Source: Elusimicrobia bacterium HGW-Elusimicrobia-1
GTDB lineage: Bacteria > Elusimicrobiota > Endomicrobiia > PHAN01
DNA: 64,000 nt
Assembly: GCA_002841695.1 (NCBI GenBank)
Contig: PHAN01000016.1
Location: 4,024 to 68,023, forward strand
Direction: 5' to 3'
Shown: positions 1 through 37,070 of the stretch, one piece after another
Numbering within the stretch: position 1 is the first letter of the stretch
Layout: every line of letters begins with the position of its first letter
The notes under the pieces: model-generated
The model's database searches: none
Seen by the model: the letters and a program-made list of their open reading frames with translations, nothing else
Told to the model about the DNA's origin: nothing
Program-made: the position numbers and the translations under genes

Positions 1-51
1 TTTTGAATAATAAAACTTAATTCACGCGTCAATAAAGGCATTGGAGAAATC

Positions 52-1509
52 ATGGACAGAAACCTCGTTGAAAAAGTCACAAAACAAGTTATCGCCGACT
101 ACAGCCGCAAGTCCTCGTCGCCGCGAAAGATTATGGCGGTTTTTATGGGCGGAGACCGTAATCTCGACGATGCGCTGTCGGCCGTTCGCGAAATAGCCCG
201 CGCGGGCAACGAAACCAAAATCCTGATAACCCGCTCCGCCGCCTCCGTGATAGGCGTTGACAGAATCAAAAATACTACCGGCGTTTCCGACGTGATAATC
301 GACGACGGCAAACAGAATTCCGTGGCGCTTTCGTCGTGGCCGGATGCTCTGGTTATAGCCACCCTCACTCTGAACGGTCTTTCCAAAATAGCCAATCTCA
401 TAACCGACACGCTTCACTCCAATATCGTCGTAGGATGTCTTGAAAGACAAGTGCCGGTTATCGCCGCGCGCGACGCGGTTTTCTGCTCCTGCCATCCGGA
501 GCCGTCTTCCGCGAGCGGCCTGGCCAGAAAAGTCGAGTCGATGGTTTACGATCTCAAAAATATGGGCGTAACGGTGACCACCGCCAAAAATCTCGCCCGC
601 GATACGTCCTCGGCGACGGGCGCCCCAATCAAAAAAATTGAAGTTACCGTCGGAACGGCGGGAAAAGTGTTTTCGTACACGCCGCCCGCGGCCGTTGGCC
701 CGGCCGATAATTGTCCTGCTTTTAAGGATGGCGCGGACTGCGCTTCCTGCGGTAAGTGCATTGAGAAAAAACCCGGTTCCGTCGGCGCGGTAATATCGGC
801 CGGCGCCGACCGCGTAAGCGCCAGTGCGGGTACGCTTGCCCCCGGAAAACTCGCCAATTACATCGACCATACTCTCTTGAAAGCCAACGCCACTCAGGAA
901 GAAATCGGCAAACTCTGCGAAGAAGCCGCCAAATATAAGTTCGTTTCCGTTTGCGTGAACCCCGCCTACGTGGCGATGTCCGCGCAGCTTTTGCGCGGCT
1001 CCGGCGTTAAGGTGTGCACGGTAATAGGATTTCCTCTGGGAGCCACAACGCCCACGGTAAAAGCCATCGAGGCCAGAGACGCCATAGCCAACGGAGCCGA
1101 CGAGATAGATATGGTCATAAACGTCGGAGCCCTTAAAAGCGGAAACCATCAGTTGGTTCTTGAAGATATAAAAGCGGTGCGCGAAGCGACGCGCGGCAAA
1201 ATACTCAAAGTCATTCTTGAAACCGCGTATCTCACGCGCGAAGAAAAAATCAAGGCCTGCGAATTATCCAAAGCGGCCGCCGCGGATTTTGTTAAAACTT
1301 CCACCGGCTTCGGCCCGTCGGGCGCGACCGCCGAGGATATAAAACTTATGCGCGACACCGTCGGGCCGTCGATGGGCGTAAAGGCCTCGGGCGGTATTCG
1401 TTCCACCGCCGACGCGACGGCAATGGTCGCCGCGGGCGCCACGCGCATAGGCGCCTCCGCCAGCGTGGCCATAGTGATGGGCAAAGACGCCGGCGCGGGA
1501 AAATATTAA
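52..1509 (+). CDS. deoC: Fusion protein: N-terminal amphipathic helix plus linker, RpiB/LacAB-like Rossmann domain, Cys-rich linker, deoxyribose-phosphate aldolase (DeoC) domain
   Basis: C-terminal ~220 aa carry class I DeoC hallmarks ([47 protein letters not shown]). N-terminal ~150 aa ([43 protein letters not shown]) resemble the RpiB/LacAB (or flavoprotein-like) fold but are degenerate. The linker contains [16 protein letters not shown]. Residues 4-16 ([13 protein letters not shown]) followed by SRKSSSPRK look like a BMC encapsulation peptide. ATG 52 is preceded by GGAGAAATC. Confidence 0.8.
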
Positions 1510-1513
1510 AAGC

Positions 1514-1598
1514 AGTGGCGAGTGGCTAGTGATTAGTGGATAGTAAAGTCAAGAAGTTTTTCTAGCCACTAGCCACTAATCACTAGTCACTAACCACC
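1514..1598. repeat. Inverted element built from tandem heptads (AGTGGNN x4.5 on the left arm, CTARYCA x5 on the right arm) between deoC-fusion stop and BMC-H start
   Basis: Read directly: agtggcg agtggct agtgatt agtggat agt ... ctagcca ctagcca ctaatca ctagtca ctaacca. The arms are roughly reverse-complementary. Related copies occur at 17542-17587, 34186-34219 and 34326-34362. Confidence 0.7.
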
Positions 1599-1613
1599 AT
1601 GGAGGTCGTAAAA

Positions 1614-1895
1614 ATGTCGGAAATCAAAGAAGCGTTGGGTATGATTGAAACCAGAGGGCTCATCGGAATGATTGAGGCCTCTGATGCCATGGTCAAAGCC
1701 GCCAAAGTCCGTCTCGTCGGATATGAAAAGATCGGCGCCGGATTGGTCACCTCTATGGTCAGAGGAGAGGTCGGAGCCGTTCGCGCCGCCGTGGAAGCCG
1801 GAGCCGCCGCCGCCCAGAAAGTCGGCGAACTCGTAAGCGTTCACGTGATACCGCGTCCGCACGAAGACGTTGAAAAAATAATCCCCAACAAATAA
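1614..1895 (+). CDS. Bacterial microcompartment shell protein, BMC-H (PduA/EutM/CcmK family, Pfam00936)
   Basis: Near-canonical BMC-H sequence: [91 protein letters not shown] lies 8 nt upstream of ATG 1614. The ORF track start at 1599 is an in-frame alternative. Confidence 0.92.
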
Positions 1896-1971
1896 ACTTA
1901 CCGCATCGGCGAATGTCCGGCCGCCGTCCGCGTGTCGGCCGGCATCCTTGCGTTCCGGCGGTTTTTCGTAA

Positions 1972-2286
1972 ATGGATAAAAACGACATAGTCGACGTCGT
2001 GGCGGCCGTTCTTTCGTCCGCCCCCGCCCGCTCTTCCGGCGGCGAGCGGCCCGTTACGCCGTTTGGCGAGGCGGCCTCGCGGACGTATAAGTCCGGTGTT
2101 TACGCGTCAGGGTATCTGAAGCCGTTTACGGCGCTCAAAAGCGGTCGGCCTTTTCTGAGCGAGTACGACGTAAAGACAATGCTGAGTTCCAATCCGCGCG
2201 AAATAACGGTTCCCAAAAACGCCATTATCAGTCCGCTTGCCGAAGATCTTATACAGGAGAAAAACGTAAAAATCAATTATGTATGA
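1972..2286 (+). CDS. Hypothetical 104-aa protein with N-terminal encapsulation-peptide-like helix (DIVDVVAAVLSS) plus low-complexity linker; translationally coupled to pilT
   Basis: ORF with an amphipathic N-terminal helix followed by a Pro/Ser/Gly linker (APARSSGGERP). Its stop overlaps the pilT start (ATGTATGA at 2279-2286). No family recognised. Confidence 0.45.
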   Translation: MDKNDIVDVVAAVLSSAPARSSGGERPVTPFGEAASRTYKSGVYASGYLKPFTALKSGRPFLSEYDVKTMLSSNPREITVPKNAIISPLAEDLIQEKNVKINYV

Positions 2287-3355
2287 CGTAAAAAAACTTC
2301 TTGGCGCGATGATCCGCAACAACATATCGGACATCCATCTTAAATCTGATTCCGCGCCCTTAGTAAGAGTCAACGGAGAGCTTGTCACCGCGTCCGAGGA
2401 AAAGATAACGGCTGAAACGATGAAAACAATCGTTGAATCGGTGCTTTTGCCCGATCAGGCCGAGAAGTTTCGCAGGGATTGCGACATAGATTTTGCATAC
2501 TCCGTCGAAGGTCTTTCGCGGTTCCGCGTCAATATGAGCATGGAAAGGGGTAATCCGTCCATTGTTCTTCGAGTTATTCCGACGGAAGTAAAAACCTTTG
2601 AGGAACTCAACCTCCCCGACGAAGCATTCAGAAAACTCGCCAACGAATCCCGCGGGCTCATACTGATAGCGGGAATAACCGGCTCCGGAAAAACAACCAC
2701 TCTCAACGCCATTATCAATCACATCAACGAAAATACGCGCGCGAAGATCGTTACCATAGAAGATCCTATCGAGTATTATCATTTCGACAAAAAATCGTCG
2801 ATCTCGCAGCGCGAAATCGGCCGCGACGCCAAATCGTTTGAGAGCGCGCTGAAATATTCTCTCAGACAGGACCCCGATATCATAGTGCTGGGCGAACTCA
2901 GAGATTCCGAGTCGATGAAAGCCGCCATACTGGCCGCCGAGACCGGGCATCTGGTGCTTTCCACCATCCACACCATAGATACTTCTCAGACGATAGACCG
3001 CATCATCAGTTCTTACCCTCCGCATCTTCAGTCGGGCGTATGCGCCCAACTCGCCTATGTGGTCAAGGGGATAGTGGCACAGCGTCTGGTGCCTTCCAAA
3101 GATTGCTCCGCGCAATACCCCATTTGCGAGATACTTATAGGCACGTCGCTTATAAAAAATATCATCGCGGAGAAAAAGCTCGGCGATATAGCCAAGGCGC
3201 TTGAACAGGGCTCTTTTTACGGTATGCGCACGTTCGACCAGGATATATACAAGCTTTTTACCGAAGGTAAGATTTCGTCGGAAACCGCGTTTGAAAACGC
3301 CACTAACGTAGACGATCTGTCTTTGCGGCTAAAGGGTATAGAGCGAACCTCATAA
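2279..3355 (+). CDS. pilT: PilT-family type IV pilus retraction (twitching motility) ATPase
   Basis: Walker A GITGSGKTT, Asp box, Walker B DIIVLGELRD and His box TIHT are all present. Length 358 aa. N-terminus matches PilT-type (ISDIHLKSDSAPLVRVNGEL). Confidence 0.85.
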   Translation: MYDVKKLLGAMIRNNISDIHLKSDSAPLVRVNGELVTASEEKITAETMKTIVESVLLPDQAEKFRRDCDIDFAYSVEGLSRFRVNMSMERGNPSIVLRVIPTEVKTFEELNLPDEAFRKLANESRGLILIAGITGSGKTTTLNAIINHINENTRAKIVTIEDPIEYYHFDKKSSISQREIGRDAKSFESALKYSLRQDPDIIVLGELRDSESMKAAILAAETGHLVLSTIHTIDTSQTIDRIISSYPPHLQSGVCAQLAYVVKGIVAQRLVPSKDCSAQYPICEILIGTSLIKNIIAEKKLGDIAKALEQGSFYGMRTFDQDIYKLFTEGKISSETAFENATNVDDLSLRLKGIERTS

Positions 3356-3409
3356 AGGGACTTGCCTCCGCCCGCAGAGCCGACATCCGCAGTTGAAAGT
3401 CCGCGATCA

Positions 3410-5275
3410 ATGCTCAAAAAATGGGAATTTATCAGGCAGCCGGCGGAAAAAGATTCATCGCGCTGGCGTCTAAAACTCAAAATCGCCGAGGATGACGTCG
3501 ACAAAATCCTGGGCGAGCTGCCGGGCAATAAGGGAAGGCCGTTTCTGGTCGAGGACGGCGTCTTTGATTTCGGCGCGTATTTTTACAATCTCACGCAAAA
3601 CGACCACGCGGCCATAGCCGAAATACTCAAAAAGAAGTCGCCCGACGGCAAATGCGGCGGTTTTAACGAAGAAACCGAGGACGTTTTCGCTTCTCTGGCC
3701 GCCAAAATCGACGAATCCGCCCGCCTATCGCCGGTTTCTCAGGAATCCGCCAATCGTCCCGCGCCTCCTGCCGCGCCGCCATCCGGCCCACGCAACGGTC
3801 ATCACAACGGTAATAACGTCCCTGCTTCGCAGGCGGGCGCGGATGCTGCGGTCTCGCCGCAGGAAACTTATTCCGGCGCATTTCTCGTGGAGGATATGCC
3901 GCTTAATCCGGAGTATATTTTCGAGCAGTTTGTCGTGGGTTCCAATAATCGCTTTACCCACGCCGCCGCGCTCGCCGTGGCCAAGGCGCCCGGTAAAACT
4001 TACAATCCTTTCTTCATACACGGCGGCGTCGGCCTGGGTAAAACCCATTTGATGCAGTCCATCGGGCATTACGTCAAAAAAAACTTTCCGGATTTGAAGG
4101 TCCTCTATGTCACCACGGAGAAGTTCGTAGGCGACGTCATCGACGCCATAAGCCACGGCGAAAACAACGCTCTGAGGAACTTTTATAAAACCATCGACGT
4201 GCTTCTGGTCGACGATATACAGTCGCTGTCGCAATCCGAATCCATGCAGGACGAATTCTTTCATATTTTCAACCTGTTGCATCAGAATAAAAAACAGATA
4301 GTCATAACCTGCGACCGCCCGCCGAAACTTCTTAATATTCTGGAAGATCGGCTTCGCTCCCGTTTCGAGTGGGGGCTTATTGCCGATATGAAATCTCCCA
4401 CACTGGAAACAAGGGTCGCGATACTTAAGAAAAAAGAAGAAGCCGAGCATCTGGAACTCGACGATAATATACTGCTTTACATCGCTTCCAAGTTGAAATC
4501 CAATATAAGAGAACTCGAAGGTTTCCTGAAAAGAATAACCGCGTATTCCACGCTGACTAAGCAGGAAATCAATATTGCCCTGATAAAAACGCTTATGGCG
4601 GAACTTCTGCCCGGCGAGGAGAATCCGGATATTACCATGGCCGCCGAACAGGCAGCCAAGTCGCCTGTGCCGCAAATGCCGCCGCAGACAATTCCGAGTC
4701 AAAAAATACCCGAACACGATTCGCCCGAGCCGGAGCGTCCGTCTATGGATTCGCTTAGCGAGGCGGACATCAAAATAGTCCCCAAAGGCGTCCAATTTTC
4801 GCCCTCGCCGGCGCACACGATACCGCAGCCGGTTCATCAGCAGCCGTCCGTTCACGCCGCCGCGCACGCGTCATTGGATCCGACACTGCGTCCGGTTGAT
4901 GTGGTGTTCTTTTTTCCGTCGGGGAAAGAGAATGAACTGGCGAAAATAAAAGACAAGTTCGCCGAGGTCATCAAAAAACACAAACTCAAATTTCAACTCG
5001 TTTCCGTATTTGACAAACCATACGAAAATAAGGGCAAGATAAATTACGCCATGTTTACCGAACTCTGCAAGACAAACAAGGTCGGCATCTCCGTGGTGCT
5101 TGCGCCCCCGCCGGATGCGGGCATTCGGGAAGAGGATTTTGTCAATATTCTGGGAGCGATGATGAGCGATGAAAAAATATCTCTTCAACTGGTTCCGTGG
5201 AACGAGATAAACAAGGACTACCGCTATCTCAATCTGGCGTTGGATATAACACTTTCCGGCGCCGACGGCAAGTGA
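3410..5275 (+). CDS. DnaA-like AAA+ protein: DnaA domain III (including the RFEWGL signature) with non-DnaA N-terminal region and a ~230-aa C-terminal extension replacing DNA-binding domain IV
   Basis: NPFFIHGGVGLGKTHLMQSIG (Walker A), VLLVDDIQ (Walker B), RSRFEWGLIADMKSP (DnaA box VII) and ITCDRPP match DnaA domain III. No HTH domain IV sequence is present in any frame. The tail contains a Pro-rich linker and a distinct ~120-aa domain (VVFFFPSGKENELAKIKDKF...). An alternative TTG start exists at 3362. Confidence 0.7.
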   Translation: MLKKWEFIRQPAEKDSSRWRLKLKIAEDDVDKILGELPGNKGRPFLVEDGVFDFGAYFYNLTQNDHAAIAEILKKKSPDGKCGGFNEETEDVFASLAAKIDESARLSPVSQESANRPAPPAAPPSGPRNGHHNGNNVPASQAGADAAVSPQETYSGAFLVEDMPLNPEYIFEQFVVGSNNRFTHAAALAVAKAPGKTYNPFFIHGGVGLGKTHLMQSIGHYVKKNFPDLKVLYVTTEKFVGDVIDAISHGENNALRNFYKTIDVLLVDDIQSLSQSESMQDEFFHIFNLLHQNKKQIVITCDRPPKLLNILEDRLRSRFEWGLIADMKSPTLETRVAILKKKEEAEHLELDDNILLYIASKLKSNIRELEGFLKRITAYSTLTKQEINIALIKTLMAELLPGEENPDITMAAEQAAKSPVPQMPPQTIPSQKIPEHDSPEPERPSMDSLSEADIKIVPKGVQFSPSPAHTIPQPVHQQPSVHAAAHASLDPTLRPVDVVFFFPSGKENELAKIKDKFAEVIKKHKLKFQLVSVFDKPYENKGKINYAMFTELCKTNKVGISVVLAPPPDAGIREEDFVNILGAMMSDEKISLQLVPWNEINKDYRYLNLALDITLSGADGK

Positions 5276-5285
5276 CGCCTCGACG

Positions 5286-6941
5286 ATGAAAAAAACGGGA
5301 TTTTTGCACTCTCTGATTCTTTTTGCTTTCGCCGTGCTGTGGGTCGGCGGCGGTTTGTGGATTACGGTCTGCGCTACGCGTTCCTATGCGGCCGCGCGCG
5401 CCGTATCGGCGGCGAAGTCGGCAGTTTCTTCAGGGACGTCGCGCGGCATATATGAGCATTTCGCATCGGAGAAGACACTGGTCAAGATCGGACGCGTATC
5501 CGCCAAAACGGGCGCGATAGAGAAGCCCGTGACAAAGACCTCGCGTATGCCGGTGGAGTTTTTCTCCGCGGAGTTCGAGGCAGGGGGGGAATATTACAGA
5601 ATGTGGTATGCGGCGGCGTTTTATCTGGATTCGCTCAAGCATAAGATGACGCCGGTGGCAATCGGTTGGGTAGTGTGGCTGTTCGCGGGACTTTTTGCGG
5701 CGCACTGGCTCAACAGAAAACTTTTATTCGATCCATTGGATGCCCTCTCGTCGATCGAATCCTCGCCCGCCAGAATTCCCAAGGCCATCGAGGCCGCCGC
5801 AAGGGCGGTTTTCGACGCGCGATCCCATCTGGCGCTTCATTCGGTGCACTCTTCCGTGTTGCTGCAGGCCGCCAAATCCATATCTTCGCACGTGGACCTC
5901 AATCACGCCGTCTCGCGCATACTCGACATAGTTGTGGAGAAATTCCCCGACACTTCCTGCTCCGTGACGTTTCTCGACGATGACGGTTTCATAAGAATAA
6001 AAAACACCCGCGGGCTTTCCGCCGAGTTTATCAAAAAAATCAAGCTTCGCCGGGGAGAGGGTTTTGCGGGGGAATGCGTTGAAACCAAAAAAACCATAGT
6101 GGTACAGGATACCGATAAGACGTCGAATGCGGCCACCGATAAATTTGTCGCCGGTGAAAACATCAAATCGTTCGTCCACGTTCCCATAGTCGTCGAAAAT
6201 CGCGCCATCGGGACATTCAATATCAACTCGTACAAGAAGGACTATTTTACCCGCGACATTCTCAGCGTGGCCGCCACGCTCAGCGAATATCTGTCCGTGG
6301 CCGTTTCCAACGCCAAACTCTACGAACGTCTGCGAGATTTCAACCGGCGTCTGGAATCGGAAGTGTCCTACACCACCAGCGAATTGCTCAAGACCAACGC
6401 GAAACTGGTGCGTAAAATCAGAACGATGAAGAGCGCCATGGAAATCTTCGGCTATTTTGAATCCGAATCCCCGTCGACCGAAATATTGACGAAAGTATTT
6501 ACCAAAATCCGCGACGTTGTCGGCGCCGATTTTATAGCGTTTGTCACTTGCGACGCGGCTTGCGGACGGTTTAGGCCGCTTTTCAGGGTATCGGGTCTCG
6601 GCGATAACGAAACCGCTTTCGGCCGGACGGAATATGCGCCCGCCGAAGTCCCGCCCGCCGCCGAAGCTTTGGCGTCCGGCCGGCCCGTCATCAAAAATTC
6701 CCCGACGTCCGACGCTAAATGGAAGATAGTTCCGGAAGGCGTATTCATCAAAACGTCGGCGGTTTTTCCCGTTTTTGCCGGAGGAACCGCCGCGGGAGCC
6801 ATAATACTGGCAAATAAAATCGGCGAAGGTTTCGACGACGCCGACGCGGAATTCGCAGTTATGGCGGCTTCCCGTCTGGGCGTTTATATACACTGCGAGT
6901 ACCACTGTCACAAAAAAACGCCCGTTGCGGCGAAAAAATAA
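5286..6941 (+). CDS. Membrane-anchored tandem GAF-domain protein (no recognisable output domain)
   Basis: N-terminal TM helices (LILFAFAVLWVGGGLWITV, VVWLFAGLFAAHWL). The first GAF domain matches typical GAF sequence (...GEGFAGECVETKKTIVVQDTDK...IGTFNINS) and is followed by a second GAF-like region. Confidence 0.6.
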   Translation: MKKTGFLHSLILFAFAVLWVGGGLWITVCATRSYAAARAVSAAKSAVSSGTSRGIYEHFASEKTLVKIGRVSAKTGAIEKPVTKTSRMPVEFFSAEFEAGGEYYRMWYAAAFYLDSLKHKMTPVAIGWVVWLFAGLFAAHWLNRKLLFDPLDALSSIESSPARIPKAIEAAARAVFDARSHLALHSVHSSVLLQAAKSISSHVDLNHAVSRILDIVVEKFPDTSCSVTFLDDDGFIRIKNTRGLSAEFIKKIKLRRGEGFAGECVETKKTIVVQDTDKTSNAATDKFVAGENIKSFVHVPIVVENRAIGTFNINSYKKDYFTRDILSVAATLSEYLSVAVSNAKLYERLRDFNRRLESEVSYTTSELLKTNAKLVRKIRTMKSAMEIFGYFESESPSTEILTKVFTKIRDVVGADFIAFVTCDAACGRFRPLFRVSGLGDNETAFGRTEYAPAEVPPAAEALASGRPVIKNSPTSDAKWKIVPEGVFIKTSAVFPVFAGGTAAGAIILANKIGEGFDDADAEFAVMAASRLGVYIHCEYHCHKKTPVAAKK

Positions 6942-6999
6942 TAATGCCTTGTCGATCCGGCCTCGCGCCGGCGGCGGCAAAAAACACGGAGGTTTTACA

Positions 7000-8178
7000 A
7001 TGCAAATCAGATTAGCCGACAGATTGTCGCGGCTCGGCACCGAAACAGCGTTTGAAGTCCTGGCCAAAGCGAAAGCGCTCGAGGCCAAGGGCAAGGAAAT
7101 GGTGCATCTTGAAATCGGCGAGCCGGATTTCGATACTCCTAAAAATATCCGCGACGCCGCCAAGAAAGCCATCGACGACGGATGGACGCATTACGGGCCG
7201 TCGGCCGGGCTTCCGGAACACCGCGCGGCGATAGCCGAATATATCTCAAAAACCCGCGGCATAAAAGTGCTCCCGGAGGAAGTGGTGGTTACACCCGGCG
7301 CCAAACCCATAATCTTCTACACTATGCTCACGGTGTTGAAACCCCGCGACGAGGTTATCTATCCTAACCCGGGTTTTCCGATATACGAGTCGATGATAAA
7401 ATTCGTCAGCGGCATACCCGTGCCCATTCCCCTGCGCGAAGAAAACGACTTTAACTTCGACATAAAAGAATTCAAAAAACTGGTTACGCCCAACACCAAG
7501 GTCATAATACTCAACTCGCCTCAGAACCCCACGGGCGGAGTTCTTCCCAGAAAAGTTCTCGAGGAGATAGCCGATATAGTTCTTCAGCGCGACGACATCG
7601 TCGTTCTTTCCGACGAGGTTTACTCCCGTATGCTCTACGACGGACAGGAACATTTTTCCATTGCGTCCATACCCGGAATGAAGGACCGCACGATAATAAT
7701 CGACGGATATTCCAAAACCTACGCGATGACGGGCTGGCGCGCGGGTTACGGCGTTATGAACAAGGAATACGCCGGCTGGATGACTAAACTTATGACCAAC
7801 TCCAATTCCTGCACGGCTTCTTTCACGCAGATGGCCTGCATAGAGGCGTTGCGCGGCGACCAGAGCGAGGTCGACAAAATGGTTGCGGAGTTTGCCCGCC
7901 GCAGGGATGTTATGGTCGAAGGATTGAATAAAATCCCCGGCGTGAAATGCAAAAAACCCAAGGGAGCGTTTTACGTGTTCCCGAACTTCAGCGAATTCGG
8001 AATGAAGTCCAAAGAAATGGAAGAGTTCCTGCTGGAAGAGGCCGGCGTGGCCGCGCTTGCGGGAACATCCTTCGGAGATTACGGCGAGGGATACATACGT
8101 TTCTCTTACGCCAATTCCGTGGAGAACATCAAAAAGGCGCTTTCTAAAATAGAAACGGCCCTGAAGCGTCTCCGCTGA
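7000..8178 (+). CDS. Class I/II pyridoxal-phosphate aminotransferase (aspartate aminotransferase-like)
   Basis: AAT-like N-terminus (LSRLGTETAFEVLAKAKALEAKGKEMVHLEIGEPDFDTP). PLP-lysine region YSKTYAMTGWRAGY. GGAGG upstream of ATG 7000. Confidence 0.8.
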   Translation: MQIRLADRLSRLGTETAFEVLAKAKALEAKGKEMVHLEIGEPDFDTPKNIRDAAKKAIDDGWTHYGPSAGLPEHRAAIAEYISKTRGIKVLPEEVVVTPGAKPIIFYTMLTVLKPRDEVIYPNPGFPIYESMIKFVSGIPVPIPLREENDFNFDIKEFKKLVTPNTKVIILNSPQNPTGGVLPRKVLEEIADIVLQRDDIVVLSDEVYSRMLYDGQEHFSIASIPGMKDRTIIIDGYSKTYAMTGWRAGYGVMNKEYAGWMTKLMTNSNSCTASFTQMACIEALRGDQSEVDKMVAEFARRRDVMVEGLNKIPGVKCKKPKGAFYVFPNFSEFGMKSKEMEEFLLEEAGVAALAGTSFGDYGEGYIRFSYANSVENIKKALSKIETALKRLR

Positions 8179-23174: not shown

Positions 23175-23233
23175 AAGCCGATCGCCCGGTAAATATCGCC
23201 GCCGCGCATATCGCGGCGCAATGGAGAAAAGTT

Positions 23234-27900: not shown

Positions 27901-27915
27901 CGGGAGATACATAAA

Positions 27916-29991: not shown

Positions 29992-31383
29992 ATGAGCGAA
30001 CAACATCAGCAGCAGCCCGCGCTTTTCAACGAAGACGAACTCTCAAAATTAAAAATCACCAAGGTGATCAAACGCGACGGCCGCATAGTGGCCTTTAACC
30101 GCGGGAAAATCGTCGATTCGATTTTCCGCTCGGCGGTCGACGTGGGCGGCTCTGACCGCGCTCTCGCGGAGTCCCTGGCCGACAAAGTCATAACGCTGAT
30201 GAAACAGATATATCCCATAGCCGCAATGCCGTCCGTCGAGGAAATACAGGATCTGATAGAAAAAGTTCTGGTCGGCAACGCGCATTACCGCACTGCCAAG
30301 GCGTACATTCTTTACCGCGACGAACACAGAAGGTTGCGCGAACATAAAGACGCCAAAATCGTTGTGGAGGACAATGTGCCTTATAAAGTTCTCTGGAGAG
30401 TTTATTCCTGGAATGTGGATCACGGCTGCGACACGACCGAGAATATAGAAAAAACAATCCGCGACGGCAGGTTCCCCGAATTGGTGGCGGCCGCCGAGAA
30501 GCAGTACCACGACAACATAGGCGACGTCGCCGACAGAATACTGGAAAGAGCCGACAAAATAAAACTGGTCATCGTCGCCGGTCCGTCGTCGAGCGGCAAG
30601 ACCACTACGACTCTTAAAATCGGGGAAAAACTCGCCGCAAAAAATCTTTCGTTTGTCTCCATCGGGCTGGATAATTATTTTAAGGACCTCCAAGAGCATC
30701 CCAAGGATGAATACGGCGATTATGATTTTGAGACGCCGGAAGCGCTCGACTTGAAACTCATAAACGAGCATCTCTTTGAATTGATGAAGGGAAAAACCAT
30801 AAAGATGCCCCTGTATGATTTCAAAACGGGCAAGCGCAAACTCAACGCTCAGGAATTCCGTCTGGAAAAAAACCAGATTCTTCTCATTGACTCGCTGCAC
30901 GGTCTTTATCCGGCCATGACGGCGTCGATTCCGCACAACAATAAGTTCAAATTCTACATCGAGGCGCTCTGTCAGATAAAGGATTCAAAGGGCGAGTTTA
31001 TGCGCTGGTGCGATTTAAGAATGCTTCGCCGCATGATCAGAGATTCCTGGCACCGCTCGTACGACCCCGTGCGCACCGTCGGGCACTGGCATTACGTAAG
31101 GCGTTCCGAAAAGCGTCACATTGTGCCTTTCATAAATAAATCGGATTATATTTTTAACGGGTCGCTTCCTTACGAACTTCCGCTTCACAAGAAATATCTT
31201 TTCAAATACTTTGATTCGATACTCGGCGCTTATAAGGACGATCCCAAAAAGATAGACGCCTACATCCGCGCCAAGCGCGTTTACGATATATTATCGGAAT
31301 TCAAAACGGATCCCGACGACACTTGCGTCCCCGACAATTCTCTGATGAGAGAGTTTATAGGCGGCAGTAAGTACAGCTACTGA
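29992..31383 (+). CDS. ATP-cone domain fused to uridine kinase/phosphoribulokinase-family nucleoside kinase
   Basis: N-terminal ATP-cone (KVIKRDGRIVAFNRGKIVDSIFRSAVDVG). PRK-family P-loop VIVAGPSSSGKTTT. Downstream LIDSLHGLY region typical of Udk. Confidence 0.7.
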   Translation: MSEQHQQQPALFNEDELSKLKITKVIKRDGRIVAFNRGKIVDSIFRSAVDVGGSDRALAESLADKVITLMKQIYPIAAMPSVEEIQDLIEKVLVGNAHYRTAKAYILYRDEHRRLREHKDAKIVVEDNVPYKVLWRVYSWNVDHGCDTTENIEKTIRDGRFPELVAAAEKQYHDNIGDVADRILERADKIKLVIVAGPSSSGKTTTTLKIGEKLAAKNLSFVSIGLDNYFKDLQEHPKDEYGDYDFETPEALDLKLINEHLFELMKGKTIKMPLYDFKTGKRKLNAQEFRLEKNQILLIDSLHGLYPAMTASIPHNNKFKFYIEALCQIKDSKGEFMRWCDLRMLRRMIRDSWHRSYDPVRTVGHWHYVRRSEKRHIVPFINKSDYIFNGSLPYELPLHKKYLFKYFDSILGAYKDDPKKIDAYIRAKRVYDILSEFKTDPDDTCVPDNSLMREFIGGSKYSY

Positions 31384-31454: not shown

Positions 31455-32474
31455 ATGCTCAGTGTAAGAGAGACGATCGAGGAGCGTGAAAAGACACTTG
31501 CGCCGCAGGCGCAGCTGTCCGGTAAAACCCGCGGTCGGGCATTAAGCGAAGACGAATGCCCCGTGCGCACCGTGTATCAGCGGGATCGCGACCGCATTCT
31601 CCACTCTCTGGCTTTCAGGAAACTCAAGCAGAAGACGAACGTGTTTCTGTCGACGACAGGCGAACAATTCCGCACACGACTTACCCATACGCTTGAAGTT
31701 TCCGCCATAGCCCGTACGATTGCCCAGGCGCTTAACCTTAATTCCGACCTCGCCGAGGCCGTAGCCCTCGGACACGACCTGGGGCACACGCCTTTCGGTC
31801 ACGCCGGCGAGGATGTCATAAAAAAAATCGATCCGGAATTTCATCACGCCCGACAATCGGTAAGGGTAGCCGAATTTTTCGAGAAAGAAGGCAAAGGGCT
31901 TAATCTGACGGTTGAGGTTCTCGACGGAATTCTTAAACACACGAAAGGCAAAAAAAAGATAAGCGAATTCGACGGCAACGGACTTTACGGCAAACCTCTT
32001 ACTCTTGAGGGTATGATAGTGCAATACGCCGACTGGGTCGCCTACATCAATCACGACCTTGATGACGCTATGCATATGGGACTTGTTTCTGAAAGCGATG
32101 TTCCGTCGTCCGTGGCAAAAACTCTGGGAACACGTCATTCGCGTCGCGTTAACACGATGGTTCAGGACATAGTGGAGTGTTCGGCCGGCCTCGAAGTCAT
32201 TAAGATGAGCGCCGGAGTCCTTGCGGCCACGGAAGAACTCAGAGATTTTTTATACCGCGACGTGTATCCGCGCCCGGAAGTTCTGGGAGCGGAAAATCAG
32301 TCCGAGCGGGTTATTGATTTCTTGACGGAAGGATTGACAAAACGTCCCGATATTATATATAAGGAATACCCTTGGTATCCGAGGGAAATACCGCTAAATT
32401 CGGCCGTAATCGATTTTGTCTGCGCCCTCACCGACAACGCCGCGCTGGCTCTTTACGGGGAGTTAAAAAAATGA
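31455..32474 (+). CDS. dgt: dGTP triphosphohydrolase-like HD-domain protein
   Basis: VYQRDRDRILHS, FRTRLTHTLEV, LGHDLGHTPFGH, and the Dgt-like subfamily length. Confidence 0.8.
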   Translation: MLSVRETIEEREKTLAPQAQLSGKTRGRALSEDECPVRTVYQRDRDRILHSLAFRKLKQKTNVFLSTTGEQFRTRLTHTLEVSAIARTIAQALNLNSDLAEAVALGHDLGHTPFGHAGEDVIKKIDPEFHHARQSVRVAEFFEKEGKGLNLTVEVLDGILKHTKGKKKISEFDGNGLYGKPLTLEGMIVQYADWVAYINHDLDDAMHMGLVSESDVPSSVAKTLGTRHSRRVNTMVQDIVECSAGLEVIKMSAGVLAATEELRDFLYRDVYPRPEVLGAENQSERVIDFLTEGLTKRPDIIYKEYPWYPREIPLNSAVIDFVCALTDNAALALYGELKK

Positions 32475-32698
32475 AATGCTACGTCGACCGTATCGAAGAC
32501 GGCAAGTACGCGGTGATAAATGTGACGGGCGGCGGCGAGATGATAATTCCCGTGAAGCAGTTCAAGTTCAAAATCCGCGAGGGGATGCATCTTGACGCGG
32601 ATTTCCGTTGCGACAAAAAATCCGAGCGCGCAACTCTCGACAGAGTAAAAAAACTTCAGGCCGAACTTTTGGCGCGTTCCGGTAAAAAAAACAAATGA
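32471..32698 (+). CDS. DUF3006-like small protein
   Basis: 75 aa. MKCYVDRIEDGKYAVI..GGG pattern typical of DUF3006. Start overlaps the dgt stop. Confidence 0.5.
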   Translation: MKCYVDRIEDGKYAVINVTGGGEMIIPVKQFKFKIREGMHLDADFRCDKKSERATLDRVKKLQAELLARSGKKNK

Positions 32699-34185
32699 TA
32701 AAAAGAGCTTCCGTTATTCTGGCGGCACTCGCCGTCGCGGCGCAAATAGCCGTTGCCTCCGACGACATCAAGATATGGTTCTCGAATCCGGACTCATCTT
32801 TGCCAAGCCCTCTTTCGCACGATACTTCCAAAAGAATAGACGCGGCGCTCTATGATTTCATAGATTCGGCTCAGAGCGGAACCACCGTCTACGTCGCCAT
32901 TTTTGAAATGAATCTCGACGGCTCCGGCGATGCCTCGGCGCTTAAAAACATAAAAGGCCTGCTTAACTCCAAAAGCGCCGACGGCGTCGCAATTTATGTC
33001 GTCGGGCACTCCACTGTAACTCTTGCCGGTCTCACTTTCCCGACTACGGTCTACCGCGCCGCTTACGAGGGCGAAGGCACCGAGGGTTCCGGCGGCCTCA
33101 TGCACAACAAGTTCGTCGTGCTGAAGGATTCCGCCGTCTGGACGGGGTCGTACAATTTTACTCTCAGCGCGACTTTGCAGCAGGACAACAACGCCGCGGA
33201 GATATTCTCGCCGGAACTGGCCGGGGTTTTCGAGACGGAATTCATCAATATGTACGGGCCGCTTGCCGTCGCTTCCAAAAAATTCGGCGACATTAAAACG
33301 TCTTCGGCGTCGGCGGCCGGCACAAACGTAAACGGCAGTTCCGTCACTATGCGCGACGGCACCGTCGTAAAAGTTTATTTCAACCCCTACACGACTCCGC
33401 AGACGGTAGCCGCGGCCATCGAAAGCGAAATCGCGCCGTCGCCTGTTTCGGGTATACCCGCGCCCGCGGAAAGCGTCGGTTTTGCCGCGGCGTGGTTTTC
33501 CAGAACGTCGATATCCGAAGCCATGAAAGAGGCGCTCGCGGCCGATGCCGGTCTTGATATATCAGGAATAATGGACGATCAGAGCAGCAATACGTCGAAT
33601 TTCTGGAGTTTGAAGACATCGACGATAAATGTCGTGTGGGACTCGCGCCGCTCGTCATTCGGGCGGGGGCTTATGCACCATAAATTTATTTTTATCGACC
33701 CGCGACGCTTAAACGGCCGTGTCGTTACCGGTTCGGCCAACTGGTCCAACTCAGGCGCGACTTCCGACGGCAACGACAACGACGAAAACATCGTCATAAT
33801 ATACAACTCTTCCGTAAGCGGTAAATATTACGACGAGTTCCGCAGAATGTTCGCGCTGACGGGTCAGGTTTCGGCGGGCGCCGTGGCAAAGGCCGTCGAC
33901 AACGTCATAATGTATCCGAGTCCCGCGCGGGCTTCCGCGGCTATAGGTTTCGATATCTCGGCGGTCGTCGAGAAAATCACCATCAAGATATACACGCTTT
34001 CGGGCGAATTGGCGCGGTCCATTACCCCTGAAACATATTATCCCGGGTTTTACAACGAGGTCGTCTGGAACCTGAAAAATTCCACGGGGCAGCGTGTCGC
34101 GCCCGGTCTTTATTTCATAAAAGTCGAAGCCGAAACTCCCGACGGAAAGTTTTTCGCGCTCAAAAAAGCCGCGGTGGGGAAGTGA
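32695..34185 (+). CDS. Secreted phospholipase-D-family (HKD) nuclease with C-terminal T9SS-type (Por_Secre_tail-like) sorting domain
   Basis: Signal peptide. Two HKD motifs (HNKFVVLKD...GSYNFT and HHKFIFID...GSANWS). C-terminal ~85 aa match the T9SS CTD consensus (YPSP...IKIYTLSGELARSI...VWNLKNSTGQRVAPGLYFIKVEA). Confidence 0.8.
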   Translation: MIKRASVILAALAVAAQIAVASDDIKIWFSNPDSSLPSPLSHDTSKRIDAALYDFIDSAQSGTTVYVAIFEMNLDGSGDASALKNIKGLLNSKSADGVAIYVVGHSTVTLAGLTFPTTVYRAAYEGEGTEGSGGLMHNKFVVLKDSAVWTGSYNFTLSATLQQDNNAAEIFSPELAGVFETEFINMYGPLAVASKKFGDIKTSSASAAGTNVNGSSVTMRDGTVVKVYFNPYTTPQTVAAAIESEIAPSPVSGIPAPAESVGFAAAWFSRTSISEAMKEALAADAGLDISGIMDDQSSNTSNFWSLKTSTINVVWDSRRSSFGRGLMHHKFIFIDPRRLNGRVVTGSANWSNSGATSDGNDNDENIVIIYNSSVSGKYYDEFRRMFALTGQVSAGAVAKAVDNVIMYPSPARASAAIGFDISAVVEKITIKIYTLSGELARSITPETYYPGFYNEVVWNLKNSTGQRVAPGLYFIKVEAETPDGKFFALKKAAVGK

Positions 34186-34219: not shown

Positions 34220-34235
34220 ATAAAACGGATAGCAT

Positions 34236-35207
34236 ATGAGCAAATTGTGTCTTTCGAGCAGTGTTCCGACGGCGCCCCGCGGACGAGGATGGCTCCTGCG
34301 ACGGATTGCCCTTGTCCTTGCCTTTACTATCCACTATCCACTCGCCACTAACCACTTACTATACGCCGCCGGTTCGTCCGCCGGAGAGTTTCTTAAAATA
34401 ATTCCCGGCGTCCGCGCCGCGGGTATGGCCGGGACTTTTACCGCTCTTGCCGACGATAAAGCGGCATTGTATTACAACCCTGCCGGACTTTCGCAGCTTC
34501 GCTGGAACGAGGCGTCGCTGTCCTATAACAGGTGGATAATCGACACTTCTCTGACGTCGCTGACCTACGGGCACACATTCGGCGTCAACGGCTCGGCGGC
34601 CGTCGGGTTTACCTATTACGATTCGGGCGATATAGAAAAACGCGGCGACACCAAAGACGCCGAGGGCAGTTTCAGGCATACCGGATTGGCCGCCCGCGCC
34701 GCTTACGGCAATGAATTTTTTGAAGGCGTGTCGCTCGGCATGGCGGTAAAATACGCCGCGGAGACGCTCGACGGCGATTCCACCGGCGCCATCGGCTTCG
34801 ACGCCGGAGTTCATTATAAGACCATTCTTGATTTCGGCGAAACATCTTTCGGCGCCGCCGCGCAGAACATCGGCTCCAAGATGTGGGAACAATATGATAT
34901 GCCTTTGCTTATTCGCGCCGGCGTCGCGCTAAAACCATCGAAAGATTTTCTTACGCTGGCCGCCGAATACGTCGCGCCTCAGGCGGGGATACCGTATATG
35001 GGGGTGGGTATGGAAATCACCCCCGGCGATTTGTCGCTGCGCGCGGGTTATAGGGCCGGCGTCTCCGACGTGTCGGGTCTTTCGGCCATCACGCTGGGAT
35101 TCGGTTACAGATATACGCAGGATTACGACTATCTGTTTAATTACGCCTTCTCGACGCAGGGCGACCTCGGCCTTATGCACAGGGTCGAAGTCGCAATGGC
35201 ATTCTGA
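34236..35207 (+). CDS. Outer-membrane beta-barrel protein (FadL/PorV- or PorP/SprF-like, uncertain)
   Basis: Signal peptide. Contains a YYNPAGL motif. Alternating beta-strand pattern with a C-terminal aromatic residue (MAF). Immediately downstream of the T9SS-CTD nuclease. Confidence 0.45.
   Translation: MSKLCLSSSVPTAPRGRGWLLRRIALVLAFTIHYPLATNHLLYAAGSSAGEFLKIIPGVRAAGMAGTFTALADDKAALYYNPAGLSQLRWNEASLSYNRWIIDTSLTSLTYGHTFGVNGSAAVGFTYYDSGDIEKRGDTKDAEGSFRHTGLAARAAYGNEFFEGVSLGMAVKYAAETLDGDSTGAIGFDAGVHYKTILDFGETSFGAAAQNIGSKMWEQYDMPLLIRAGVALKPSKDFLTLAAEYVAPQAGIPYMGVGMEITPGDLSLRAGYRAGVSDVSGLSAITLGFGYRYTQDYDYLFNYAFSTQGDLGLMHRVEVAMAF
34326..34362. repeat. Inverted heptad-repeat element copy (actatcc actatcc actcgcc actaacc act) inside the 5' coding region (signal peptide) of the outer-membrane protein gene
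   Basis: Approximately the reverse complement of 34186-34219 and 1514-1544. The two copies flank the RBS and start codon at 34236. Confidence 0.6.
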
Positions 35208-35224
35208 TAAAAGGTCGTTGGCCG

Positions 35225-36115
35225 ATGAAAAGACAAATAAAACATTATCGATATTCGGCGCTCATGCGCTTCTTATCCATTTTCGCGGCGCTGTCGCTGC
35301 GATGCGGCGCGGCCTTTGCCGACACATCGATACTGAAGGTTCATTTTCTCGACGTCGGACAGGGGGATTGCTCTCTCATTCAGACGCCCGGAGGAAAAAC
35401 TCTGTTGGTGGACGGCGGGCCCGAAGACGACTACTTCGACGCCGGCCGCGAAATTATTGTTCCGTATCTTAAAAAACTCGGCATCAAAAAAATAGACGCG
35501 ATATTTGTTTCGCACGCTCATCGCGATCATATAGGCGGCATTCCCGAAATAATAAAAAACTTCGAGGTAGGCGCTGTTTACGATACCGGCTACGCATATC
35601 CTTCGCCGATTTATGAAAAGCTCCTCCGGCAGATAAACGCCAATAAGATAACTTACATACAGGCGCGCGCCGACACCAAAGCGGTAATAGACCCGGACGT
35701 GGAAATAAAGATTCTGGCCCCCCCGAAGAAGCTTCCGTGGGACGATCCGAACAATAATTCCATGGTGGTACGGCTTTCGTACAAAGAAATCTCGTTTCTG
35801 TTTACCGGCGACATCGAGGCGGACGCCGAGGATTCTCTCGTCAGAATTTATCGCTACGGCCTGGAATCCAACATACTGAAAGTCGCGCACCACGGCTCCA
35901 AAACATCATCCGCCGATTATTTTCTGGAAGCGGTTAATCCCGAGGCCGCGGTCATACAAGTCGGACGCCGCAACCGTTTCCGGCATCCCAGCCCGTCTAC
36001 CGTCAAAAAATTAAAAGATTTCGGGATGAACGTCTACCGGAACGACATCGACGGCACCGTCGTCGTCGATACCGACGGTCATGTCTTTGAAGTCAAAAAA
36101 CTCGGGTTTCAGTAA
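35225..36115 (+). CDS. Secreted ComEC-type metallo-beta-lactamase-fold protein (putative nuclease), paralog 1
   Basis: Signal peptide. FLDVGQGDCSLIQTP start typical of the ComEC MBL domain. HAHRDHIGG metal motif. Also VAHHGS. Confidence 0.75.
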   Translation: MKRQIKHYRYSALMRFLSIFAALSLRCGAAFADTSILKVHFLDVGQGDCSLIQTPGGKTLLVDGGPEDDYFDAGREIIVPYLKKLGIKKIDAIFVSHAHRDHIGGIPEIIKNFEVGAVYDTGYAYPSPIYEKLLRQINANKITYIQARADTKAVIDPDVEIKILAPPKKLPWDDPNNNSMVVRLSYKEISFLFTGDIEADAEDSLVRIYRYGLESNILKVAHHGSKTSSADYFLEAVNPEAAVIQVGRRNRFRHPSPSTVKKLKDFGMNVYRNDIDGTVVVDTDGHVFEVKKLGFQ

Positions 36116-36137
36116 TCCTGCGGCACAATAAATATCC

Positions 36138-37070
36138 ATGATTGTAAAAAAAACAGCACGATTGTCGGCTGCGCTTTTTTTTGCCGTTTTACTGACGGGC
36201 TGCGCAACCGCTCCGAAGCGCGCAACTCGCCTCTTTGTCGCGCCTGCCGATTACATATCGGGCGACACCGACATCAAAATACATATGATAGACGTCGGCC
36301 AGGGCGATTCCATCCTTATACAGACGCCCAACGGACGCAATATGCTCATAGACGCCGGAGGCGTGCCTTCGTTTATGGGCGGGAATACCGATACCGGCCG
36401 CGAATACGTCATTCCGTTTTTACAGCGGCATTTGCGCCGGGGATTTACTCTGGACGCGGTTATAATGTCGCACCCGCACGCGGACCATATAGGCGGTATG
36501 CCGACGGTGCTGGAGAATGTGAAAGTCCGCAAGGTATACGATTCCGGCTACGCCCGCGGCGACAGCGAATACGGAAAGTGTCTTGAAATTATCAAGCGCA
36601 AGAATATCGACTACGAGGTCGTCTCCGCCGGAGACGTCATAGAACTTGACCCCGACCTGGAAATAACCGTGCTTTCGCCGCCGTCGGGCATATCATTCGA
36701 GGGCGCTAACAACAATTCCGTGGTAGTGCGGATAAAATACAAGGATTTTGTGACGATATTGACGGGCGACGCCGAGGTCGAAGCCGAGAACTATATGGTC
36801 CCAAGTTTTCGCGGCGGACTTCAGGCCAGCTTGCTTAAGGTCGGTCATCACGGGTCGCGCACTTCTTCCACGCCGGGATTTATAAACGCGCTGATTCCGG
36901 AAGTAGCCCTGATACCATGCGGGAGAAACAACCGTTTCGGTCACCCTCATTCCGAAACCGTTTCGCGTCTGAGAGGGGCCGATACATATGTTTATCGCAG
37001 CGATTACGACGGCGATGTCACCGTTACTTCCAACGGATTCAGTTTCACCGTCCGGACTTCGCGCAGATAA
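36138..37070 (+). CDS. Lipoprotein ComEC-type metallo-beta-lactamase-fold protein (putative nuclease), paralog 2
   Basis: Lipobox LLTGC. Also IDVGQGDSILIQTP, HPHADHIGG and VGHHGS. Confidence 0.75.
   Translation: MIVKKTARLSAALFFAVLLTGCATAPKRATRLFVAPADYISGDTDIKIHMIDVGQGDSILIQTPNGRNMLIDAGGVPSFMGGNTDTGREYVIPFLQRHLRRGFTLDAVIMSHPHADHIGGMPTVLENVKVRKVYDSGYARGDSEYGKCLEIIKRKNIDYEVVSAGDVIELDPDLEITVLSPPSGISFEGANNNSVVVRIKYKDFVTILTGDAEVEAENYMVPSFRGGLQASLLKVGHHGSRTSSTPGFINALIPEVALIPCGRNNRFGHPHSETVSRLRGADTYVYRSDYDGDVTVTSNGFSFTVRTSRR

Follow-up and report, generated by a model that had tools for sequence, protein, structure and literature searches.

Few bacterial microcompartments (BMCs) are as widespread as those of the SPU type, and the idea that their substrate is DNA-derived deoxyribose-5-phosphate has hitherto been based mainly on the enzymes encoded inside the locus. 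In the classical deo operon of E. coli and Bacillus, deoC is grouped with deoB and the genes for thymidine/pyrimidine nucleoside phosphorylase and purine nucleoside phosphorylase. Here we describe a 64-kb stretch of DNA (the window) from an uncultured groundwater Elusimicrobia bacterium, HGW-Elusimicrobia-1, which opens with one half of an SPU1 locus, including the deoxyribose-5-phosphate aldolase (DERA) and a shell protein. In Elusimicrobia, SPU1 runs straight into genes predicted to make the substrate (nucleoside phosphorylases, phosphopentomutase and deaminases), which gives the idea independent genomic support. In some genomes SPU1 also adjoins exported nucleases and phosphate importers, providing a concrete, testable gene set.

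When the SPU type received its name in 2014, DNA catabolism was already the process envisaged (PMC4207490); in 2021 it was expanded to seven subtypes that probably metabolize DNA degradation products (PMC8217296). Descriptions of metagenome-assembled genomes (MAGs) speak of a 'BMC involved in DNA degradation' (PMC9324843). A preliminary description of the window held that SPU loci were known only from genome surveys, but biochemical work from 2024 (PMC11585597) purified SPU DERA and RPI, assayed both, and reports that all SPU DERAs carry a BMC-specific N-terminal extension consisting of a helix and two short strands (Dwyer et al., 2024). Its claim of novelty largely falls as well, because the DNA-derived deoxyribose idea is the standard published hypothesis. 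What this analysis adds is that SPU1 and a feeder pathway are physically linked and that the linkage is conserved; the system itself is known and catalogued.

Three further systems invite comparison. The SPU-type compartments of Hodarchaeales, described in a 2025 preprint that proposes a DNA-as-nutrient role (PMC12747264), share the flavoprotein-domain-DERA fusion with the window; they differ in being archaeal, in having their DNA link through K/R-rich tails on vertex proteins and, according to the accessible part of that preprint, in having feeder enzymes distributed genome-wide and not clustered with the locus. Candidatus Izemoplasma, DNA foragers of marine sediment for which the accessible text postulates a microcompartment in one genome (10.1101/528695), resemble the window in extracellular nucleases, nucleoside catabolism, DERA and aldehyde handling; they belong to another phylum and use other nuclease families, and no clustered super-locus is described in that text. 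With the deo operon the window shares the clustering of the same four activities (DERA, Pdp, DeoB and PNP), together with Cdd/Add-type deaminases. It departs from the operon in that its DERA bears an extension of the encapsulation type and is accompanied by a shell gene, and in that the cluster further encodes exported nucleases, two importers of phosphate, a transketolase-like enzyme and ATPases of unassigned role, but no permease of the NupC/NupG type. Neither microcompartments nor nucleosides come up in the main survey of groundwater Elusimicrobia.

Distal half of a split SPU1 locus

Gene identities are from Pfam and NCBIfam scans of the open reading frames (ORFs) of the window, signal peptides were called by eye, and L-numbers label the homologous loci and contigs with which the window was compared. 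The DERA and PLD proteins encoded here are 100% identical to proteins that NCBI assigns to HGW-Elusimicrobia-1. Positions 1-37070 hold 30 genes, all on the + strand. Almost every gene named in the preliminary description is confirmed among them, but it had omitted seven that have no obvious fit to a pathway: those for the PilT-type, DnaA-type, GAF, aminotransferase, AAA_18, 392-aa P-loop and ATP-cone/uridine kinase proteins. The first three genes are:

52-1509, +, SPU-type DERA (Pfam DeoC and Flavoprotein)
1599-1895, +, BMC-H shell protein with the KAAK/PRPH interface (Pfam BMC, 100.8 bits)
1972-2286, +, 104-aa protein kept after BMC-H (no Pfam match)

The DERA consists of a helix (aa 3-20), a flavoprotein-like Rossmann domain (aa 26-189), a TAGKVF/CxxCGxC linker and a TIM barrel (aa 264-480), and matches the solved DERA 5dbu with 286 bits. 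In the AlphaFold2 (AF2) model (pLDDT 86) the helix spans 3-20 and the Rossmann-like domain 26-189; two short strands, of low confidence, follow at 198-208, and then the TIM barrel. In an alignment of 30 homologues the catalytic residues D353, K415 and K444 are invariant, and the N-terminal helix and the TAGKVF/Cys-rich linker are kept throughout; the flavoprotein-like domain (~165 residues) follows the helix in the long forms only. The window DERA is clearly of the microcompartment (SPU) type, because it combines the N-terminal helix and extension with an intact catalytic Asp/Lys/Lys set, as in the published definition (PMC11585597). The fusion with a flavoprotein domain has been noted before (PMC12747264).

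BMC-H is the single shell gene of the window. Its product shares 80-86% identity with the BMC-H encoded beside DERA in L006, L008 and L012, and is the orthologue of the BMC-H that lies 3' of DERA in complete SPU1 loci. The subtype has two BMC-H paralogues, distinguished by KAAK/PRPH and KAA(N/D)/PQPH interfaces, in the accessible part of the supplement of Sutter et al. (2021); the one seen in this genome is the KAAK/PRPH paralogue. The 104-aa protein has a counterpart 3' of BMC-H in 12 SPU1-type loci; its C-terminus weakly resembles TIGR02536 eut_hyp (32 bits, below the cut-off).

L006, L008 and L012, in which the orthologous DERA is 51-60% identical to that of the window, are complete SPU1 loci. 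BMC-P, AldDh, a PduS-like protein, BMC-T, two RpiB and two further BMC-P (three in all) lie 5' of DERA. This array is preceded by TIM, PTAC and BMC-H in L006 and L012, and in L008 and L012 two small proteins additionally stand before the last BMC-P pair. On the 3' side of DERA come BMC-H, a ~100-aa protein, a PilT-like protein (L008 and L012; an FTCD_C protein fills this slot in L006) and a DnaA-like protein, after which L006 and L012 continue with aminotransferase, transketolase, Ade and DeoB. The same order, from BMC-H on, was found by tblastn in L016 (DERA 58% identical).

Unlike these loci, the window holds the distal half, with AldDh, BMC-P, BMC-T, RpiB and PTAC encoded elsewhere. On contigs identical to the window, the genes upstream of its DERA encode a giant fn3 protein, a TPR protein, a DUF2341 protein and Memo/AMMECR1, the last directly next to DERA and on the opposite strand. 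Among relatives whose upstream sequence is available, the closest (L011, DERA 76% identical) also has Memo/AMMECR1 directly 5' of DERA; in L009 and L010 (DERA likewise 76% identical) DERA is at the start of the contig. L011 is contig JBGFRZ010000084 of a sister MAG (GCA_041694835.1), and a genome scan seeded with the L012 AldDh identified its main half on JBGFRZ010000045 (L015), in the order TIM-PTAC-BMC-H-BMC-P-AldDh-PduS-BMC-T-RpiB-RpiB. Since the sister MAG has the main locus on a second contig, the locus is split, not lost, in the clade of the window.

HGW-Elusimicrobia-1 itself is listed as 'SPU1 (main)', with the 182-aa BMC-T CVU77_03345, in the accessible part of the supplement of Sutter et al. 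(2021; PMC8217296), which also records that a few SPU1 loci are split in two. This locus tag is ~890 tags away from that of a PLD protein in the window (CVU77_07795, described below). SPU shells combine BMC-H with at least one BMC-T; the window provides the former, and the catalogued BMC-T is elsewhere in the genome, where the BMC-P proteins are also expected, at the main locus. The preliminary description had made its case dependent on further BMC components in the genome; the catalogued main locus points to them, and the sister MAG has the same split. Its microcompartment locus therefore stands in the DERA and BMC-H genes, but not as a self-contained unit: 52-2286 is the detached distal half of the catalogued SPU1 locus of HGW-Elusimicrobia-1. 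The assignment to SPU1 agrees with the extension of DERA, the KAAK/PRPH BMC-H, the Elusimicrobia host, TIM and PTAC in the relatives and the sister MAG, the split locus and the catalogue entry.

Nucleoside genes and their linkage to SPU loci

Beyond the half-locus and two ATPase genes (described in the last section), the window continues with:

5286-6941, +, membrane-anchored double-GAF sensor (Pfam GAF_2 and GAF; N-terminal hydrophobic segment)
6925-8178, +, class I/II (aspartate-type) aminotransferase (Pfam Aminotran_1_2, 242 bits)
8284-10701, +, divergent transketolase-like protein (Pfam Transketolase_N and Transket_pyr)
10783-12510, +, adenine deaminase, Ade (Pfam Adenine_deam_C, 225 bits, and Amidohydro_1)
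12507-13715, +, phosphopentomutase, DeoB (NCBIfam NF003766, 503 bits, cut-off 256)
13712-14746, +, PiT-family phosphate transporter (Pfam PHO4, 272 bits)
14777-15379, +, DUF47/PhoU-like partner of PiT (Pfam PhoU_div, 71.6 bits)
15396-16214, +, purine nucleoside phosphorylase, PNP, PunA type (NF006054, 357 bits)
16230-17540, +, pyrimidine-nucleoside phosphorylase, Pdp (Pfam Glycos_transf_3, Glycos_trans_3N and PYNP_C)
17604-19826, +, RecJ 5'-3' single-stranded DNA (ssDNA) exonuclease (TIGR00644, 543 bits)
19860-21113, +, DHH/DHHA1 phosphoesterase, RecJ- or NrnA-like (Pfam DHH, 32 bits; assignment weak)
21337-22212, +, MTAP-family nucleoside phosphorylase (TIGR01694, 314 bits, cut-off 275)
22209-23174, +, PfkB sugar or nucleoside kinase (Pfam; no specific family)
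23171-24217, +, xylose-isomerase-like TIM barrel (Pfam; no specific family)
24283-24939, +, AAA_18 P-loop kinase-like protein (Pfam AAA_18)
24952-25983, +, adenosine deaminase, Add (Pfam A_deaminase, 295 bits)
26004-26399, +, cytidine deaminase, Cdd (Pfam dCMP_cyt_deam_1, 78 bits)
26495-27673, +, 392-aa P-loop protein with the motif GGAGTGKST (no Pfam or NCBIfam match at threshold)
27802-29955, +, Na/Pi cotransporter with C-terminal PhoU repeats (Pfam Na_Pi_cotrans, 197 bits, and PhoU)
29992-31383, +, ATP-cone/uridine-kinase fusion (Pfam ATP-cone and PRK)
31455-32474, +, dGTP triphosphohydrolase-type HD protein (NF002327, 411 bits, cut-off 393)

The first part of this series recurs behind SPU1 in other genomes. 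The contig of L012 (L056) has DnaA-like, aminotransferase, transketolase, Ade, DeoB, PiT, DUF47, PNP, RecJ and Pdp genes in order, and on the 168-kb contig of L019 (L058) the same block lies ~10 kb beyond the SPU1 locus, after a GAF histidine kinase and a response regulator. Ade is syntenic in L006, L012, L056, L057 and L058, and orthologues of the aminotransferase adjoin SPU loci in L006, L012, L058 and L043-L045. Contig L057 of the sister MAG carries Ade, DeoB, PNP, Pdp, RecJ, DHH, MTAP-like, PfkB, TIM-barrel, AAA_18, Add, Cdd, 392-aa protein, PiT and DUF47 genes, which is the order of the window except for a restriction-modification insertion and the moved PiT/DUF47 pair; its 392-aa protein is 68% identical and in the same position. 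The insertion (L057 2093-3836), between Ade and DeoB, encodes a DNA methyltransferase and an R.HinP1I-type restriction enzyme.

Other modules of the window adjoin SPU loci elsewhere. In L034 and L046 the PiT/DUF47 pair lies upstream of the SPU locus; in L021 and L026 DUF47 was the only one of the two detected. In three UBP18-type MAGs (L043-L045) MTAP-like, TIM-barrel and AAA_18 genes are directly upstream of the SPU locus and the aminotransferase is downstream. L008 has a PLD gene and one gene for an MBL-fold protein upstream of its SPU locus, and there, too, the dcw cluster follows. Gene order thus gives good support to the view that the core block aminotransferase-TK-Ade-DeoB-PiT-DUF47-PNP-RecJ-Pdp would be functionally tied to SPU1. 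This link to nucleoside and DNA catabolism rests on the conserved synteny and on the modules that adjoin SPU loci in other genomes, not on strand. The preliminary description had counted the common strand as evidence, but the + strand carries nearly all of the main ORFs scanned in the 64 kb, those of S21-DnaG-RpoD and the dcw cluster among them, and co-orientation is therefore uninformative on operon membership.

Gaps of more than 200 bp separate the aminotransferase from the transketolase-like gene, the DHH from the MTAP-like gene, the 392-aa protein from the Na/Pi cotransporter and the HD protein from the PLD gene. A promoter-like site at 8189-8217 (11/12 positions matched) falls in the first of these gaps and a terminator-like hairpin at 21290-21306 in the second. 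Based on the four gaps and these two sites, the most reasonable reading is that there are about five transcription units instead of one.

The double-GAF protein is likely a regulator, and its position is taken by a GAF-HisKA-HATPase protein with a response regulator in L058 and by a response regulator in L006. The transketolase-like protein scores far below the NCBIfam transketolase cut-offs, and its gene probably starts near 8395. An encapsulated transketolase was considered and rejected: the apparent N-terminal extension is an artefact of choosing the longest ORF, the start in orthologues being near MSQKEIV, and the additional residues lie inside the protein. The DHH domain of RecJ carries a DnaQ-like DEDDh 3'-5' exonuclease insert (aa 214-385, Pfam RNase_T). 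The preliminary description had listed this fusion and spoken of several novel fusions, but PF00929 occurs in most of the top 120 Elusimicrobia RecJ homologues and the DEDDh-bearing RecJ is the usual form across the phylum. In the DHH protein the DHHA1 match is below the cut-off, and that to the NCBIfam archaeal RecJ is well below. The PfkB and TIM-barrel pair matches NCBIfam families only far below their cut-offs, and no specific function can be assigned to it.

In the Na/Pi cotransporter a signal peptide, read from an internal start (~27916), precedes an Ig-like periplasmic domain; the transporter assignment made earlier is sound, whereas the Ig-like match is weak (Big_1, 25.5 bits, below the cut-off). 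The presence of an ATP-cone on a uridine kinase/PRK protein suggests that ATP or dATP may regulate the phosphorylation of nucleosides allosterically. This fusion and the HD protein are, judged by their families, predicted salvage or nucleotide-pool enzymes.

Exported proteins, proposed route and competing explanations

The last four genes before 37.1 kb encode a module of exported proteins:

32695-34185, +, exported PLD-superfamily putative nuclease with two HKD motifs (Pfam PLDc_2 and FlgD_ig)
34236-35207, +, PorV/PorQ-family outer-membrane beta-barrel (NF033709, 147 bits, cut-off 90)
35225-36115, +, stand-alone ComEC/Rec2-type MBL-fold protein 1, exported (TIGR00361, 155 bits)
36138-37070, +, stand-alone ComEC/Rec2-type MBL-fold protein 2, exported, with a lipobox (TIGR00361, 162 bits)

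Signal peptides are present in the PLD protein (NCBI locus tag CVU77_07795), both MBL proteins and the PorV/PorQ barrel, as in the Na/Pi transporter. The C-terminal ~90 aa of the PLD protein match FlgD_ig and, weakly, the C-termini of PorU/PorZ, and homologues carry Por_Secre_tail (PF18962). The window thus has elements of the type IX secretion system (T9SS) type, a cargo C-terminal domain next to a dedicated PorV/PorQ-family barrel; to our knowledge, Elusimicrobia are not known for type IX secretion. Both MBL proteins match TIGR00361 only at positions ~440-663, the C-terminal MBL domain of ComEC/Rec2. The PLD-PorV-MBL-MBL block recurs in L117 (PLD/PorV at 1483-3943; PLD 44% identical) beside HIT-S21-DnaG-RpoD. 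More distant PLD homologues (34-36%) in L118 (10001-18823) and L119 (10001-18574) are beside two ComEA-like HhH proteins (HHH_3), a type IV pilin-like protein and a prepilin peptidase; these neighbours suggest a DNA-binding or uptake context for the PLD family.

We give a probability of about 70% to the explanation that the window joins the distal half of SPU1 and its accessory genes to units that feed the compartment with DNA-derived substrate. The domain identities, signal peptides, split-locus architecture and conserved synteny described above are direct observations; from them we infer the enzymatic and transport steps, the encapsulation of DERA and the co-regulation of the units. Behind the half-locus, the accessory genes (PilT-type, DnaA-type, GAF sensor and aminotransferase) would be followed by about five units supplying substrate. 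Extracellular or periplasmic DNA would be cut by the exported PLD-type and two exported ComEC-type MBL nucleases, the PLD protein probably being held at the surface, via its T9SS-type tail, by the adjacent PorV/PorQ-like barrel. Released phosphate would be imported by PiT/DUF47 and the Na/Pi transporter. In the cytoplasm, ssDNA and oligonucleotides would be trimmed by RecJ/DEDDh and the DHH protein, bases and nucleosides deaminated by Ade, Add and Cdd, and nucleosides phosphorolysed by PNP, the MTAP-like enzyme and Pdp to (deoxy)ribose-1-phosphate, which DeoB would convert to the 5-phosphate. Deoxyribose-5-phosphate would enter the SPU1 compartment, where DERA would yield glyceraldehyde-3-phosphate and acetaldehyde, the latter being processed by the AldDh and PTAC encoded at the main locus. 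Ribose-5-phosphate would pass into the pentose-phosphate pathway via the transketolase-like enzyme.

A number of observations weigh against this explanation. Several concern the compartment. With the full SPU1 protein set, tblastn found no BMC-P, BMC-T, AldDh, PTAC, TIM, PduS or RpiB in the window; its only match with three BMC-P paralogues was a spurious one of 31 residues inside dnaG, and no PF03319 occurs among the scanned ORFs. SPU loci encode an acylating aldehyde dehydrogenase and at least three BMC-P vertex proteins; the window has neither. The upstream region, proposed earlier as the place to look, contains no gene for BMC-P, BMC-T, AldDh, PduL, PTAC or RpiB within 10 kb, as judged from contigs identical to the window. 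The main locus of this genome is known from the catalogue entry, whose accessible part gives the BMC-T record only, and from the sister MAG. The earlier suggestion that DERA is enclosed in a BMC has the SPU-type DERA and BMC-H in its favour, but in a simple test the helices proposed as encapsulation peptides did not stand out as amphipathic: for the N-terminal helices of DERA and the 104-aa protein, fractions of 0.34 and 0.37 of the shuffled controls equalled or exceeded the observed hydrophobic moment.

Others concern the feeder genes. The conserved block in L058 stops after Pdp and unrelated genes follow. The tie of nucleoside and DNA catabolism to the aldolase holds for the core and its synteny with SPU1; the more distal genes are not kept together as a block, and within the core, PiT/DUF47 has moved in L057. 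Five members, RecJ, dGTPase, uridine kinase, Cdd and Add, are routine genes of salvage or repair. There is no nucleoside or nucleotide transporter and no 5'-nucleotidase among the genes of the locus, which leaves a gap in the pathway. With this gap, and with several genes that are unassigned or of salvage or housekeeping type, the earlier picture of thirty-odd genes forming one coherent pathway is not tenable. The assignment of the PLD protein as a nuclease depends on weak NucT/Zucchini-type matches far below the cut-off; the secreted nucleases proposed earlier carry export signals, but this assignment is weak. A metagenome scan with the PLD protein gave mostly relatives of 25-33% identity, in unrelated contexts and with no associated cluster genes. 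Signals of common transcription are weak: the counts of promoter- and terminator-like sites are near chance, three sites at module borders being noteworthy, and a search of 1-37200 against Rfam at E<=0.1 gave no match at all, hence no riboswitch.

The alternative that survives best is that scavenging of phosphorus and bases, together with nucleotide salvage, is the main purpose of the genes, and that the compartment only detoxifies a deoxyribose by-product. We consider this improbable as the main purpose, although it is compatible with the feeding of the compartment and the two are not mutually exclusive. It would explain why two phosphate importers with PhoU-type regulators are present, why PiT/DUF47 is the module that most often adjoins SPU loci (four loci), and why the window encodes such salvage enzymes as the ATP-cone/uridine kinase, the dGTPase, the PfkB kinase and the P-loop kinase-like proteins. 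However, three deaminases, three phosphorylases, DeoB, DERA and the transketolase-like enzyme make up a full sugar route to central metabolism, and the AldDh and PTAC of SPU main loci would conserve energy from acetaldehyde.

A second alternative takes the window as a mosaic of independent operons, in which a satellite BMC fragment happens to lie beside ordinary salvage and repair genes, PNP, Pdp and DeoB included, and phosphate transporters. It draws on the near-uniform orientation of the 64 kb, the four gaps with their promoter- and terminator-like sites at module borders, the general Elusimicrobia form of RecJ, the variation of the distal modules among relatives, and L117, whose exported block is on an 11-kb contig with no BMC genes. 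Three observations speak against such a chance arrangement. The block from aminotransferase to Pdp follows SPU1 even where RecJ identity is down to 44%; different modules adjoin SPU loci in different lineages, including the UBP18-type MAGs and a MAG with a Bacteroidales-labelled closest DERA relative; and DeoB and the nucleoside phosphorylases yield exactly the substrate of DERA. We therefore regard it as unlikely, and prefer the reading in which these genes feed the SPU1 compartment.

A decaying relic, in which the compartment is lost and DERA is free in the cytosol or on BMC-H sheets with no aldehyde sequestration, would account for the single shell gene, the lack of core enzymes within 10 kb upstream and the replacement of the ancestral upstream half by unrelated genes, but is very improbable given the main locus catalogued for this genome (Sutter et al., 2021, accessible part of the supplement), the intact main locus on another contig of the sister MAG, the conserved extension and catalytic residues of DERA, and the intact, syntenic DERA, BMC-H, 104-aa, PilT-like and DnaA-like genes in relatives with 76% DERA identity.

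ATPases next to the half-locus and the surroundings

Two ATPase genes lie between the half-locus and the GAF sensor:

2279-3355, +, PilT/PilU-family hexameric ATPase (TIGR01420, 415 bits, cut-off 319)
3410-5275 (start possibly 3362), +, DnaA-type AAA+ ATPase (Pfam Bac_DnaA only)

The PilT-type ATPase has the same position in L008, L012, L016, L022, L023, L026, L028, L029, L046 and L050. It is found between the BMC-H/104-aa and DnaA-like genes in at least ten SPU1-type loci, with no other pilus genes nearby. The DnaA-type protein comprises an N-domain of ~90 aa, a low-complexity linker, domain III, a P/Q-rich linker and a C-domain of ~130 aa, the two terminal domains being conserved. It matches B. 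subtilis DnaA (8btg) with 400 bits over domain III only, TIGR00362 covers only positions 99-347, and the protein has neither DnaA domain I nor domain IV (no Bac_DnaA_C). Members of the family in L006 (12836-15028), L008 (14260-16164) and L012 (14009-15874) are all inside SPU1-type loci. The possibility that the gene encodes the chromosomal initiator beside oriC was considered; it is ruled out by the missing domain IV and by the lack of a DnaA-box cluster in the window.

The C-domain has 79 representatives among 1.84 billion proteins and is always C-terminal; ten of ten full-length family members carry the DnaA ATPase domain, and all ten lack DnaA_C. The C-domain showed no similarity to Pfam (relaxed search), to PDB sequences (profile searches) or to BMC-H (hhalign), and its single-sequence AF2 model failed (pLDDT 46.8); the N-domain, too, matches nothing in Pfam or among PDB sequences. 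The rare DnaA-type family, which has no DNA-binding domain, and the PilT-type ATPase are both conserved within SPU1-type loci, and both are possibly new there.

The PilT-type, 104-aa and DnaA-type genes have the same position in most SPU1-type loci with enough downstream sequence. Each of them is kept between the DERA/BMC-H pair on one side and the nucleoside genes on the other, and they could be integral, undescribed parts of the SPU1 organelle system; we put this forward as a tentative and rather doubtful proposal. They may form an apparatus, driven by ATP, through which DNA uptake by pili or the handling of ssDNA is coupled to the compartment; alternatively, the aldolase cargo may have in the DnaA-type protein its AAA+ chaperone, its activase or a factor that positions it. 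For the DnaA-type protein, a connection with DNA uptake or handling and a chaperone role for the cargo seem the likeliest readings. The conservation of the two ATPases is a lead that may indicate a link between DNA handling and the organelle. The searchable parts of the texts on SPU loci (including PMC8217296, PMC11585597 and PMC12747264) make no mention of PilT, DnaA or nucleases, and in the searchable text of the SPU1 papers (PMC8217296, PMC11585597) the PilT- and DnaA-type ATPases and the extension by nucleoside, nuclease and phosphate genes are not discussed.

On the 3' side of 37.1 kb the window encodes housekeeping functions: HIT, S21, DnaG, RpoD, two tRNAs, MraZ and the dcw cluster, SurE, UvrB and NadC. 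The two tRNAs are the only matches to Rfam at gathering thresholds. SurE (5'/3'-nucleotidase, 55393-56193) is the sole nucleotidase candidate in the window and lies among dcw and repair genes, outside the proposed locus. The cumulative GC skew across the 64 kb has only a shallow minimum, near 8-12 kb.

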